Assembly (NCBI RefSeq): GCF_009557235.1
Contig: NZ_CP045650.1
Location: forward strand, 2,130,001 to 2,162,000
Reading direction: 5' to 3'
Origin: Acinetobacter wanghuae
GTDB lineage: Bacteria > Pseudomonadota > Gammaproteobacteria > Pseudomonadales > Moraxellaceae
Length of the DNA stretch: 32,000 bases
Part shown: positions 20,727 through 32,000 of the stretch, in pieces
How positions within the stretch are numbered: the stretch's first letter is position 1
How the letters are laid out: each line of letters begins with the position of its first letter
The notes under the pieces: model-generated
The model's database searches: none
What the model was told of the DNA's origin: nothing
The model's input: only the letters and a program-made list of their open reading frames with translations
Made by a program: the position numbers and the translations under genes

Positions 20727-22271
20727 CTAAATAGACTCAAAGAGCTCTACCCATTTTTTTAGAATACTAGTACTAGAAAAGTTTTGACTCAGTAATTTGG
20801 CTTGTTCGCGAATATGACTCATATTCTGTTGATCATTCAAGTATTGAATAATTTTTTGAGCGTATTGCTCTACATCACCATCTGCAATCAAATAGCCATT
20901 TTGGTTATGTTGAATCATTTCACTTGGTCCATAACGAATATCGAATGAAGTCACAGGACAGCCATTAGCAAGCGCTTCCATGATCACCAAACAAAAGGAT
21001 TCACTCTGACTGGTTAATAACAACATTGAAGCTTCTTGGAGCACTTGATTTACATCCGAAACAAAGGGCTTTAAGAAAATATGATTTTCAAGTTTTTTGT
21101 CTTTAATCATTTTCTTTAAGTTCGAATACTCTAGTCCGAAACCAAATAAATCTAAGGTCGCTTGTGGATGATGCGTAACTACACGTTCAAAAATTGAAAT
21201 GAGTAAATCTAAGCGTTTTACTTTGTCATACCGTGCCAAAGAAACGAATTTATAGGGATCAAATGTAAGATAATAATCATCAGGTCTATGCGCCAATGCA
21301 TGTGGAATCACTTTATAGTTATTATGTGCACCATAAAGTTCTTCAATATCCTTTTTCTGTCGGTGAGTCAAAATGATCAAACCAGATAATTTATCGATAT
21401 GCCTAAAATATGGTGTGTAATTTTTATTCGGTGAACTTTTTATATCATTTGGATTATTATAGTGCGCTGCATGAATTGTACCAAACATGAAGAAATTCGA
21501 AGGAATATTATCCTTCAGTAAAAGATTAAAAACATTTATACGGTCGATCAAGAAAAGATATTTCTTCCGCGGGTCAATACATAATTTTCGCTGAATTGTA
21601 TATTGAGCCAATTCGATCAAACTCTGACAACTTTGGATGACCATCCCGTGTTCATCGAATAAATGTAGATTCTGAATCACACGTTTATCCTTGTTATAGC
21701 CGTAATGAACTTGGATAACGAGTTTGCCATTCACATCAAAAAAACTCTCAGCAATAACTTTTTTTTCATTCAAAATTTGATTTGAACATAGCTTTCCATA
21801 GTCATCGTAACGACTACGACTTACGACTTGTCCATTTTCAAAAAAGTTGATATGAATGAGCTTAGAGGATTTAAATACTTCATAGCGTTTGGTTCTACCC
21901 GATGTATCTTTATATATACGATTATTGATTGAATCAAATTCAACACCATTTTCAACACATGCGGCGATTGAACAAAAATAATCGGATGACTTCTTTTGGT
22001 AATATGAAAAAAGATTAATCAATTCGATATTTTTTGTATTTTTTAATAAACAATCGCTATATAATTTTTCAAAATTTGCACGTGTATTCAAATCGTGTTC
22101 AATGGTTAAAATTTTTATTTTGTAACCATAATTTGCGAGTAACTCTGCTCGACGCAACATTGAAACTACAATACCTGTCTTATTTTCTGATATTTTAGGG
22201 TAAAGCATAAATATTTCTTTATTGCTCATATTCATTATGTATCCATATAGATTTTTATCTAAAAACAACAC
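20727..22271 (-). CDS. GT4 glycosyltransferase of the GtfA/SdgA/SdgB type (O-glycosylation of Ser-rich or Ser-Asp repeat proteins)
   Basis: 514-aa ORF. The track start at 22271 is a GTG that overlaps the upstream stop by 1 nt; ATG starts at 22235 or 22229 are at least as likely.
- The C-terminal GT-B half has the E-x7-E block SESFCLVIMEALANGCPV followed by FDIRYGPSEMIQHNQNGYLI. I remember streptococcal GtfA as ...FDVRYGN..FI.DGKNGYL.
- The mid-region GTIHAAHYNN...NKNYTPYF...LIILTHRQKKDIE resembles GtfA VVVHAEHF...WNNFYDYQ...FIVATEAQK.
- The N-terminal ELINLFSYY resembles GtfA IIWLYNFF.
- The length of about 500 aa suggests an inserted domain between the Rossmann halves.
- There is no signal peptide. 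Confidence 0.75.
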   Translation of the reverse strand: MLFLDKNLYGYIMNMSNKEIFMLYPKISENKTGIVVSMLRRAELLANYGYKIKILTIEHDLNTRANFEKLYSDCLLKNTKNIELINLFSYYQKKSSDYFCSIAACVENGVEFDSINNRIYKDTSGRTKRYEVFKSSKLIHINFFENGQVVSRSRYDDYGKLCSNQILNEKKVIAESFFDVNGKLVIQVHYGYNKDKRVIQNLHLFDEHGMVIQSCQSLIELAQYTIQRKLCIDPRKKYLFLIDRINVFNLLLKDNIPSNFFMFGTIHAAHYNNPNDIKSSPNKNYTPYFRHIDKLSGLIILTHRQKKDIEELYGAHNNYKVIPHALAHRPDDYYLTFDPYKFVSLARYDKVKRLDLLISIFERVVTHHPQATLDLFGFGLEYSNLKKMIKDKKLENHIFLKPFVSDVNQVLQEASMLLLTSQSESFCLVIMEALANGCPVTSFDIRYGPSEMIQHNQNGYLIADGDVEQYAQKIIQYLNDQQNMSHIREQAKLLSQNFSSTSILKKWVELFESI

Positions 22272-23332
22272 TATATCTTGGCAATTTTTTTACGTAAGTT
22301 TTGCGGTAAAAAATTATTCTTATACGGTGGTTGAGCCTTAATTGCTAACCATTCATAATAATCGACCTGCGCACATGCAACGGAATATGCCATAAAGCCA
22401 ACACCAGGCCCAACATTAACCTCGTAAATATAGATATCTCCATCTTGTGTAATCCCAAGGTCCAGCCCAATTGAATCCAATCTCCACGCAAATTGTTTTT
22501 GGAAATTTTGATTAAAATCATCAAATAACTGTCTGATACCTAGATTAATTTTATCCACGCTACTTGGGTAGTATTGCTCTAAAAATAGCTGTTCTCGAGT
22601 GGTGATTAATGCCCCGAGCATACCATTTGTAATATCAATCTCTTTGTTTAGATTCACGTAAGGGAAAAATTTAATGAGCTGCCATTTGCCCTCTTTCCCA
22701 CGTGTAATATGCATTCTAAAAACAGTCGTCTGTCCTAAATGAGTTTCACTTTTTAGAAATGGACTAACTGTATAACCTCTTTTGAGATTTTTTTTTGTAA
22801 ATTCTTCTAATTCACTTAAATTATATTCATGCTGTTCTTGCATTTGTTTTACTATATATACATCAGCATTCTTTTTAATTGTAACAATTCCCTTACCCTG
22901 ATTACTTGCATCGGGTTTACAAATAATCTTGCTATATTTATTTAGGCTATTTTTAATCACTGAAAAATCATTAAGCTCTAAAACCTCGATTAAATACTTC
23001 CTCAACGGTTCAACCTTATTCATAATTTTATAAACCGTTTCCTTCGTACCAATCCGATTATTTGCAAAAGGAATAAGCTCTGCTAACTTTAAGTAGCTTT
23101 CCATATCCTCTTCTTTCACAGCCAAACGATTCTGCACAACATCTGGAAAATCAAAAATCTCTTCAACAACTTTATTATTCCTTAAAGTTTTGCCCTTAAT
23201 TCTCTTATTCTTAAAATCAATATTTTTTGCAATGAATACATAAGCTTCATGTTTTTTTTGCTGAGCAACTGAAATAAAAATTTTCTCTATATCGGTTATC
23301 ACCATATTCGGTTTTAATACACCAAAAATCAT
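22271..23332 (-). CDS. ATP-grasp enzyme, YheC/YheD-like family
   Basis: 353-aa ORF. Motifs are FDFPDVVQNRL (like the YheC/D ...PDV.Y.R), IICKPDASNQGKGI (the P-loop-like ATP-grasp strand), FRMHITRGKEGKWQL, and GLDLGITQDGDIYIYEVNVGPG (the ATP-grasp C-terminal Mg/ATP motif). It has a 4-bp overlap with the upstream gene. No signal peptide. Confidence 0.7.
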   Translation of the reverse strand: MIFGVLKPNMVITDIEKIFISVAQQKKHEAYVFIAKNIDFKNKRIKGKTLRNNKVVEEIFDFPDVVQNRLAVKEEDMESYLKLAELIPFANNRIGTKETVYKIMNKVEPLRKYLIEVLELNDFSVIKNSLNKYSKIICKPDASNQGKGIVTIKKNADVYIVKQMQEQHEYNLSELEEFTKKNLKRGYTVSPFLKSETHLGQTTVFRMHITRGKEGKWQLIKFFPYVNLNKEIDITNGMLGALITTREQLFLEQYYPSSVDKINLGIRQLFDDFNQNFQKQFAWRLDSIGLDLGITQDGDIYIYEVNVGPGVGFMAYSVACAQVDYYEWLAIKAQPPYKNNFLPQNLRKKIAKI

Positions 23333-31900: not shown

Positions 31901-32000
31901 TGTCTGAGTCGGAATCGCTGTCGCTATCAGAATCGGAATCACTGTCGCTGTCTGAGTCAGAGTCGCTGTCGCTGTCAGAATCGCTGTCAGAATCAGAGTC
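25974..32000 (-). CDS. Giant Ser-Asp-repeat, T1SS-type (Bap/RTX-like) surface adhesin; 5' end lies beyond the window (2008 codons visible)
   Basis: The 1005-aa track ORF begins at a GTG (cac, 28989-28991), but the same frame stays open upstream. The preceding codons are atc/aga/gtc/aga/gtc/gct, which read GAT TCT GAC TCT GAC AGC on the minus strand. The phase, with plus-strand codon starts divisible by 3, still reads Asp/Ser at 31980-32000. The C-terminal part has VCBS-like blocks ([14 protein letters not shown]...[11 protein letters not shown]) and a T1SS C-terminal target domain. Confidence 0.85.
25977..26336 (-). other. Type I secretion C-terminal target domain (about the last 120 aa of the adhesin)
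   Basis: [23 protein letters not shown]...[22 protein letters not shown]...[25 protein letters not shown]...[27 protein letters not shown]. The pattern (D.I.DF...GD.LDL..LL ... vd.dG.g ... i.L ... L) matches the T1SS C-terminal target domain of the VCA0849 subclass as I remember it. Confidence 0.7.
27114..28976 (-). repeat. Two tandem, diverged modules of about 300-320 aa within the adhesin, each ending in a VCBS-like block
   Basis: Module 1 (aa 6-326) and module 2 (aa 327-626) align block by block:
- AVDDLDSV / AVDDLYTA
- [24 protein letters not shown] / [24 protein letters not shown]
- [18 protein letters not shown] / [18 protein letters not shown]
- [10 protein letters not shown] / [10 protein letters not shown]
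- [14 protein letters not shown]...[25 protein letters not shown] / [14 protein letters not shown]...[25 protein letters not shown]. Confidence 0.8.
28992..32000 (-). repeat. Uninterrupted Ser-Asp dipeptide repeat tract, at least 1003 codons, truncated by the window edge
   Basis: Only the codons GAC/GAT (Asp) and TCT/TCA/TCC/AGC/AGT (Ser) occur. Strict alternation is mirrored in the shadow ORF 28958-31942, which alternates [T/I] with [L/Q/P/A/V] without exception. Higher-order identical DNA blocks lie inside the tract (see findings). Confidence 0.9.

Follow-up and report, generated by a model that had tools for sequence, protein, structure and literature searches.

How might a tight cluster of enzyme genes be related to the giant adhesin gene beside it, when that adhesin carries a stalk of hundreds of Ser-Asp (SD) dipeptides in a Gram-negative bacterium? 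The question is raised by a stretch of 32,000 nt, hereafter the window, which covers bases 2130001-2162000 of the single-contig genome of Acinetobacter wanghuae (2.77 Mb, 40.6% GC). Reading of its open reading frames (ORFs) places four tightly packed minus-strand genes 3' of the adhesin gene, at 20727-25793. Judging from homology and gene neighbourhood, the locus is probably a substrate-plus-modifier module, composed of an X-Asp-repeat adhesin (X being Ser or Ala) and a cassette that decorates its stalk. The gene content is established, as are folds, catalytic motifs, and the conservation of the linkage, and from these we infer the modification itself. An earlier note on this DNA had regarded the locus as a candidate undescribed system. 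This holds for the cassette but not for the adhesin class, since SD-repeat adhesins of the type I secretion system (T1SS) are already known as beta-type biofilm-associated proteins (beta-BAPs; PMC4647330).

The adhesin gene runs on the minus strand at 25974..32000, where an open frame gives its C-terminal 2008 codons, and it extends outside the window to ~36731 in window coordinates. Read on into the genome, the full ORF encodes a BapA-type T1SS adhesin of ~3585 residues. From the N-terminus, it is composed of BapA_N (PF22783, 1.3e-27), nine Big_6 immunoglobulin (Ig) domains, (Ala-Asp)308, (Ser-Asp)523, two adhes_GNV_Cterm/VCBS-like modules, and a T1SS target domain. The stalk thus has ~830 X-Asp dipeptides in total. 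NCBIfam matches are adhes_GNV_Cterm (8e-90), ABSDF2314_adhes (1.4e-54), T1SS_VCA0849 (7.9e-13), and VCBS (3.3e-5). The T1SS_VCA0849 profile (TIGR03661) locates the C-terminal target domain at 25983..26225 (minus), corresponding to residues 927-1007 of the in-window fragment 1000-2008. By translation, the (Ser-Asp)n array lies at 28958..32000 (minus), with ~1002 of its 1046 residues inside the window and (Ala-Asp)308 preceding it outside. A giant SD adhesin with VCBS-like modules and a T1SS signal, as first described from the window, is therefore borne out by the strict SD residues and the NCBIfam matches. The SD array is the only one in the genome. Its codons are a synonymous mix (GAC/GAT for Asp; AGC/TCT/TCC/AGT/TCA for Ser), and its DNA has imperfect 18/24/42-nt periods whose units match each other at just 65-73%. 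This points to a repeat at the protein level and not to a simple-sequence artefact. A plus-strand 1069-residue ORF at 28792-31998 and alternative-frame ORFs over 28958-32000 were rejected as genes, as they are shadows of the repeat. The (Ala-Asp)308 tract is at the window-equivalent 32131-33978 (genome 2162131-2163978, minus), directly upstream of (Ser-Asp)523; its codons are mainly GAT plus GCC/GCG/GCT, and its GC content is 63%.

BapA_N, the C-terminal target domain, and a cognate T1SS in the genome assign the protein to the BapA/LapA-type adhesins. The T1SS genes form a single LapEBC-like OEP/ABC/MFP locus at genome 1206435-1211034, ~950 kb from the adhesin, and none adjoin the adhesin in the window or its flanks. 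LapG (PF06035) has no match in the genome; LapG/LapD-type release is a feature of the LapA subtype and does not define the BAPs. A second adhesin-like ORF of 1467 residues, at genome 914730-919130 (+), has a T1SS-type C-terminus ending ...NGQIIY. With two adhesins and a single secretion locus, one exporter is presumably shared.

We then inspected the region past the adhesin stop codon. An intrinsic terminator follows after 24 nt at 25931..25950 (minus), as a palindromic hairpin of 8 bp, 6 of them GC, and then a T run, which confirms the strong terminator reported earlier. An A/T-rich spacer of ~130 nt separates it from the cassette. The four cassette genes are single-copy in the genome, and their coordinates and three junctions hold on re-reading: an 11-nt gap between the genes of the 550- and 266-residue proteins, a 4-bp overlap between those of the 266- and 353-residue proteins, and a 1-nt overlap between that of the 353-residue protein and the glycosyltransferase (GT) gene. 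None of the four proteins has a signal peptide, a hydrophobic N-terminus, or a transmembrane-like segment, in agreement with the first reading. The identities then given to three of them, an S11 peptidase, a YheC/D ATP-grasp enzyme, and a GT, were upheld by Pfam and NCBIfam; the fourth, the 550-residue protein, had been called unknown and is in fact a GtfC homologue.

The last gene (20727..22271, minus) encodes the GT, a GT4 enzyme of SdgB/GtfD type with a DUF1975-like beta insert, in 514 residues from a GTG start or 502 from an ATG at 22235. It matches Glycos_transf_1 (PF00534) above the cut-off (1.2e-34), with a GT-B fold and a GT4 donor domain. Of the NCBIfam profiles, SdgA scores best (2e-59), ahead of SdgB (3.6e-54), which aligns end to end, and of GtfA (2.4e-34); among PDB sequences, SdgB is the best match (2.7e-44) and TarM the next (1.7e-38). 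In the AlphaFold2 model (pLDDT 91), a domain of nine long beta-strands, residues 105-202, is inserted in the N-terminal Rossmann domain. Foldseek aligns the model with SdgB crystal structures at template modelling (TM) scores of 0.84-0.88 over ~500 residues, with the ~10-strand antiparallel insert included, ahead of TarM and GtfA; identity to SdgB and TarM in these alignments is 22-25%. The DUF1975 profile (PF09318) gave no score for the GT in the Pfam search, although the model has the strand insert. SdgB has a three-domain architecture, in which the DUF1975 insert binds SD peptides (PMC8561734). The GT also stays below the GtfA equivalog TIGR02918 (118.9 bits, cut-off 574.6). Fold, beta insert, and SD linkage are thus those of the SdgA/SdgB/GtfD-type enzymes, and the equivalog score is not. 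By its sequence, the GT is a distant relative of SdgA/SdgB and not an orthologue. The earlier assignment to a GtfA/Sdg type stands, in that profiles, insert, and superimposition of the predicted model all point to an SdgA/SdgB-type enzyme with insert domain rather than a generic GT4.

The first cassette gene (24141..25793, minus) encodes the 550-residue protein, for which Pfam, NCBIfam, and PDB sequence searches returned no match. It is 40% identical over 519 residues (E 3e-122) to a 538-residue protein of Staphylococcus aureus. The S. aureus reference gene holds the published GtfC-F primer exactly, is matched by GtfC-mutF just upstream, and follows the gene of an LPXTG protein; primers and position together identify it as gtfC. 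In methicillin-resistant S. aureus (MRSA), gtfC and gtfD lie downstream of pls, and their products glycosylate the SD repeats of Pls with N-acetylhexosamine (HexNAc; PMC5230774). GtfC (SACOL0051, 538 residues) is "not predicted to be a Gtf by CAZy", and GtfD is a GT4 enzyme of 503 residues; strain COL glycosylates Pls to some degree with gtfD by itself, and gtfC just enhances this (PMC5230774). Full-length homology and a position directly downstream of an X-Asp-repeat surface-protein gene place the 550-residue protein in the GtfC family, which has 1564 cluster representatives. Its AlphaFold2 model (pLDDT 95) is composed of an N-terminal alpha/beta domain and an (alpha/alpha)6 barrel. The best Foldseek matches are AGE-type sugar epimerases/isomerases and GH76, and an annotation atlas gave GH127 as a lead (0.86). 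Around 20 polar residues are invariant across 36 diverse members, including D411-H412-W413, Y370-x-G-E373, and R529/R531/D533/D534/H537, a pattern that suggests an active site. A predicted complex of the GtfC-like protein with the ATP-grasp enzyme scored 0.07 against a mark of 0.32, which speaks neither for nor against their pairing.

The two middle genes encode the S11 DD-peptidase-like protein (23329..24129, minus; 266 residues) and the YheC/D-family ATP-grasp ligase (22271..23332, minus; 353 residues). The former matches Peptidase_S11 (PF00768, 1.3e-18) with 67.8 bits against a cut-off of 27.6, and its SxxK (STAK), SxN (SSN), and KTG motifs are intact. Its PDB matches are DD-carboxypeptidases, PBP4, and the K15 DD-transpeptidase; the DD-carboxypeptidase alignment spans the first two motifs, and the single-domain K15 enzyme is of about the same size. 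As the hydrophobic N-terminus is absent, it is an atypical S11 member, predicted to be cytoplasmic and not exported. The latter matches ATPgrasp_YheCD (PF14398, 1.1e-32) with 113.7 bits against a cut-off of 26.8. The ATP/Mg-binding residues K139, G148, R206, D291, and E304-x-N306 are invariant in the ATP-grasp alignment, and of the solved structures, that of the tubulin-tyrosine-ligase (TTL)-like ATP-grasp Pby1 comes closest in a profile comparison (1.3e-4). Judged by motifs and N-termini, the cassette enzymes look active and cytoplasmic. CfmP, an ATP-grasp enzyme that modifies fimbriae of Klebsiella pneumoniae (PMC12632600), was considered as a precedent and set aside as a loose analogy, as it belongs to a different ATP-grasp family and its modification is an oxidised His.

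Does the cassette accompany SD arrays elsewhere? We surveyed 247 Acinetobacter species genomes, found full-length relatives of the GT in 30 (~12%), and read all 33 places; the whole survey covered 80 genome loci plus ~35 GT loci. The close GT clade, defined by at least 32% identity, has 15 places in Acinetobacter, of which 14 are outside this genome. Wherever the sequence reaches far enough, GtfC is adjacent. Nine of the 14 places have an SD array of 100-1740 residues within ~20 kb, and the other five end at a contig break or masked N. None of the places contradicts the linkage to SD repeats. In Acinetobacter sp. Marseille-Q1620, an SD array of at least 1110 residues and the adhesin C-terminus are followed by GtfC, ATP-grasp, and GT. 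The order in Acinetobacter sp. 809848 and metagenomic relatives is SD array, adhesin, GtfC, hexapeptide acyltransferase, S11, ATP-grasp, GT, and a 301-residue protein; across loci L007-L010, the SD adhesin and GtfC precede ATP-grasp and GT, with or without S11 and the hexapeptide enzyme. The distant clade typified by GT_L022 is SD-linked too wherever it can be read. GT relatives at 26-28% identity are uninformative: no SD array lies within 30 kb of a 26%-identical Acinetobacter copy, and one relative lies in a teichoic-acid locus. Among the loci surveyed, the ATP-grasp and S11 genes are confined to SD-linked (once Ala-Asp (AD)-linked) cassettes, and neither they nor the GT occur in the 27 loci that pair an Ig-repeat BAP with GtfC and a PGA_cap protein. 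Neighbourhood survey, profiles, and structure checks therefore support the substrate-plus-modifier reading and did not refute it.

Other SD-linked cassettes also bear a hexapeptide acyltransferase and add conserved genes lacking Pfam matches, encoding 301-329-, 574-, and 521-residue proteins (L008:9068-9973; L022:12782-17165). The putative decoration toolkit is, by its gene content, modular and larger than the four genes here. Downstream of the Ig-repeat ("alpha") BAP genes, in the A. calcoaceticus-baumannii group as well as others, come genes for a GtfC homologue and for a 574-residue PGA_cap-domain protein. Specifically, the 6299-residue Ig-repeat BAP of A. nosocomialis (L043, L097, L098) contains no more than a short DADADSDADADADSD motif, placed behind the N-terminal domain. 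A GtfC/PGA_cap BAP locus and an SD-type locus occur together in some species. In the GtfC tree, Moraxellaceae form one clade, within which the PGA_cap-only type is a subclade.

Outside Acinetobacter, none of the 399 other Gammaproteobacteria in an even sample of 400 genomes including this one has the GT, so the SD linkage is not explained by the GT being a widespread housekeeping gene. In Edwardsiella anguillarum, one operon comprises a BapA_N adhesin with GSDSDSDAEGGA repeats, OEP, ABC, MFP, and, as its last gene, the GT. On a Firmicute contig, the GT gene directly follows that of an SD-LPXTG protein. We also searched for GtfC-related loci with a 7-sequence alignment. In Bacillota, the GtfC gene directly follows that of an LPXTG/LPNTA protein with an (Ala-Asp)n or (Ser-Asp)n stalk in 18 of 20 evaluable loci, and (Ala-Asp)n stalks reach 1490 residues (Brochothrix). 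A dedicated sortase or a 685-residue ligase is often encoded next, and many of these loci (L070-L093) lack a glycosyltransferase. Staphylococcal GtfC genes are followed by a ligase of 680-685 residues (L086:11552-13609; L094:4124-6166), most like MurF, the D-Ala-D-Ala-adding enzyme (3.8e-33). We know of no report of a MurF-like ligase partner for SD/AD-repeat proteins. Since staphylococcal GtfC genes are often paired with such a ligase, the ligase and peptidase classes are not a peculiar extra of the diderm locus, as had been supposed. The L094 ligase gene shares its contig with RepA_N replication genes.

Long members of the GtfC family are fused to a YheC/D ATP-grasp, Mur-ligase, PGA_cap, GT4, or GT2 domain. 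In a Gram-negative operon of 51% GC (L099:3-11952), an (Ala-Asp)n T1SS adhesin with at least 183 dipeptides is encoded with OEP, ABC, and MFP, and the last gene encodes a 1422-residue GtfC::ATP-grasp::Mur-ligase fusion; a GT is absent from this locus. Together with the serine-free Bacillota loci, this operon indicates that the ligases would need neither Ser nor a GT. By sequence comparison, the common denominator of the GtfC-linked stalks is Asp, not Ser. The predicted GtfC partners activate or cut at carboxylates, and the D-Ala-D-Ala flavour recurs in both the MurF-like ligase and the DD-peptidase.

These observations allow a mechanism to be proposed. The adhesin stalk, (Ala-Asp)308 plus (Ser-Asp)523, would be polyanionic, and export would proceed by the single LapEBC-like T1SS of the genome. 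As the T1SS signal is C-terminal, the whole chain would be made and still be unfolded in the cytoplasm before export. From its homology and synteny, the GT would bind the SD tract and O-glycosylate the serines in it, HexNAc donated by a UDP-sugar being the likeliest addition. The (Ala-Asp)308 half of the stalk is serine-free, so O-glycosylation is impossible there. The GtfC-family protein would work with the GT, as gtfC does with gtfD on Pls, perhaps as a repeat-binding adaptor or a second-step enzyme. The TTL-like ATP-grasp enzyme may add one or more amino acids to carboxylates of the repeat, with Asp side chains as the likeliest acceptor and the glycan as the alternative. The DD-peptidase-like enzyme may trim or edit this addition, which possibly has a D-Ala-type terminus. 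We regard ligation to Asp carboxylates or glycan followed by such trimming as a plausible sequence of steps, although a somewhat doubtful one. The outcome would be a glycosylated, partly charge-masked stalk that is protected from proteases and alters adhesion or biofilm behaviour.

Several observations weigh against the substrate-plus-modifier reading. A non-exhaustive literature search found no glycosylated T1SS substrate, so it is an assumption that a decorated chain can pass the T1SS channel. The strong terminator splits the adhesin from the cassette, and co-transcription is hence not implied. The sole RNA trace is a set of metatranscriptome contigs of 107-313 nt (X10) identical to parts of the four cassette genes; many are chimeric, DNA carry-over is possible, and operon structure is not visible in them. 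The GT scores 201.5 (SdgA) and 184.2 bits (SdgB) against a curated equivalog cut-off of 800, and TarM, a teichoic-acid enzyme, is nearly as close to it in sequence and fold. The GtfC barrel is epimerase/glycosidase-like and lacks a known glycosyltransferase fold. Moreover, GtfC-family genes also follow Ig-repeat BAPs holding merely a 16-residue AD/SD motif, and an exception to the rule is one fused member, whose TamB-like neighbour has no X-Asp repeat. The nearness of TarM, which transfers N-acetylglucosamine (GlcNAc) to wall teichoic acid, leads to a rival explanation: the cassette may build or decorate a non-protein polyanionic surface polymer, of a teichoic-acid-, teichuronopeptide-, or poly-gamma-glutamate-like kind, and merely share a genomic island with the adhesin. 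A 28%-identical GT relative within a TagF/TagGH teichoic-acid locus, the label "poly(glycerol-phosphate) alpha-glucosyltransferase" that public records give to GtfC homologues, fusions of GtfC members to the PGA_cap and Mur-ligase domains that polyglutamate synthesis also uses, and the low GC of the cassette (32-35% vs 40-44% for the adhesin) all fit such a polymer. We nonetheless consider it quite improbable. The cassette holds no polymerase, flippase, ABC exporter, or lipid-carrier gene; the linkage to X-Asp repeats persists across two phyla and two secretion/anchoring routes; the enzyme genes lie inside the adhesin/T1SS operon in Edwardsiella and L099; and the S. aureus pair gtfC and gtfD has a protein as its target (PMC5230774).

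A division of labour within the cassette has also to be weighed, in which modification of the adhesin is left to the GT alone. The GtfC-like protein would then serve the highly acidic repeat as a holdase or export adaptor without catalysis of its own, much like GtfB or Asp1-3 in the accessory Sec system, and the ATP-grasp/S11 pair would belong to an unrelated peptide metabolism of the cytoplasm. The partial glycosylation of Pls by COL gtfD by itself, enhanced by gtfC (PMC5230774), is in line with this, as are the missing GT fold of GtfC, the resemblance of the GT model to Asp1 too, and the many Bacillota in which GtfC alone, with just a sortase, accompanies (Ala-Asp)n proteins. It is hard to reconcile with the ~20 invariant polar GtfC residues, which are active-site-like across the 36 members, with the S11-then-ATP-grasp pair, which in Acinetobacter is found in SD-linked cassettes only and whose start and stop codons overlap here, and with the fusion of GtfC to ATP-grasp and Mur-ligase domains in single polypeptides. 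On balance, this division of labour is unlikely, if a little less so than the polymer. Finally, the adjacency may be a coincidence of island structure, or the cassette a conflict or defence system. Low cassette GC, resolvase genes near related loci, and a PF20706 GT4-conflict match (3.5e-05) that falls below the cut-off are compatible with this idea. It is nearly refuted, as none of the four cassette proteins matches PADLOC and the X-Asp synteny recurs in dozens of species of distant lineages; we give it hardly any credence.

The substrate-plus-modifier reading can be extended to the GtfC family at large. GtfC proteins may be the hub of a cross-phylum derivatisation of X-Asp stalks, in which, besides the known Ser O-glycosylation, TTL-like ATP-grasp and MurF-like ligases would add amino acids, perhaps D-Ala or D-Ala-D-Ala, to Asp beta-carboxylates of a protein of ribosomal origin, and DD-peptidase-like enzymes would trim them. 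This extension is speculative and, in our estimate, rather unlikely to hold as a whole. If it were true, it would be a new kind of protein modification and would turn the stalk into a protein counterpart of glycosylated, D-alanylated teichoic acid. If the modification at this locus is real, the adhesin would be the first decorated T1SS substrate in Gram-negatives, an unfolded and heavily decorated chain could traverse an ABC/MFP/TolC-type channel, and the logic of staphylococcal SD-repeat glycosylation would have moved between phyla. In staphylococci, SD glycosylation shapes how well ClfA, Sdr, and Pls resist proteases and how immunodominant they are. The association of GtfC with serine-free (Ala-Asp)n and carboxylate-activating ligases suggests an unrecognised modification of Asp-rich stalks, with relevance to the staphylococcal MSCRAMMs. 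To our knowledge, SdgA/B and GtfC/D are known from staphylococci only. In the literature, searched non-exhaustively, no SdgA/B- or GtfC/D-type enzymes were reported beside Gram-negative adhesins, and no GtfC link to Ala-Asp repeats. The hypothesis is directly testable with peptides and four small soluble enzymes.

The surroundings of the locus are housekeeping genes, with an OprB porin, PQQ glucose dehydrogenase, nrdAB, and nuo on one flank, and a HAD hydrolase and ThiD on the other. The low GC of the cassette contrasts not only with the non-repeat parts of the adhesin but also with these neighbouring genes, likewise at 40-44%. This suggests a separate ancestry, possibly in a low-GC (Bacillota-like) background; no donor emerged. 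The nrdAB genes are at 8933-13738 in this window, and in Acinetobacter sp. 809848 and relatives the SD-adhesin cassette is a few kb from ribonucleotide reductase genes (L008-L010, 14.4-19.0 kb). The shared proximity suggests a conserved chromosomal insertion site for the island. A gut-metagenome run (X1) has a 3.9-kb contig ~99% identical to most of the cassette (window 20353-24252), which by this match places a near-identical strain in an animal gut sample.

How does the locus compare with known systems? The earlier note drew its analogy with SdgA/B; the nearest characterised system is Pls-GtfC-GtfD, found in MRSA with SCCmec type I (Bleiziffer et al. 2017, PMC5230774). In both, an SD-repeat surface protein gene is immediately followed by a GtfC-family gene (40% identity) and a gene for a GT4 enzyme of ~500 residues with a DUF1975 insert, and the enzymes are predicted to be cytoplasmic, with no signal peptides. 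Different from Pls, the substrate here would exit by a T1SS in a diderm, with no Sec signal, LPXTG motif, or locus sortase. The four genes are co-directional, in contrast to the convergent gtfC/gtfD of MRSA, an ATP-grasp enzyme and an S11 peptidase are added, and the stalk gains (Ala-Asp)308.

SdgA and SdgB of S. aureus, reportedly the work of Hazenbos in 2013, are the best match of the GT by profile, sequence, and structure, with three domains and a predicted SD acceptor in common. The locus differs from them in having a single GT instead of a tandem pair and GtfC, ligase, and peptidase alongside, and in scores far below the equivalog cut-offs. With respect to the substrate, the adhesin resembles the beta-BAPs such as ABSDF2314, which were catalogued in 2015 with no mention of neighbouring modification genes or glycosylation (De Gregorio et al., PMC4647330). 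It shares their BapA-like N-terminus, hundreds of SD dipeptides, and T1SS C-terminus, as reflected by the ABSDF2314_adhes match at 1.4e-54. Unlike them, it retains nine Ig domains, gains the AD array, and has its T1SS genes ~950 kb away and not flanking the adhesin.

Glycosylation of serine-rich repeat proteins in accessory Sec systems offers a further parallel, as it likewise employs a DUF1975-containing GT4, a helper protein for full activity, and glycosylation of the stalk in the cytoplasm before export, as predicted here. However, no SecA2/SecY2/Asp genes are in the window or flank, and the helper here is an (alpha/alpha)6-barrel protein rather than the GT-B-like GtfB. The last comparison, with wall teichoic acid decoration by TarM/TarS and Dlt, is a conceptual analogy: a polyanionic stalk, a TarM-like GT, and a possible charge modification by amino acids are common to both. 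The acceptor here would be a ribosomally made protein repeat in place of a polyol phosphate, and the ligases are of ATP-grasp and MurF-like types in place of DltA-D.

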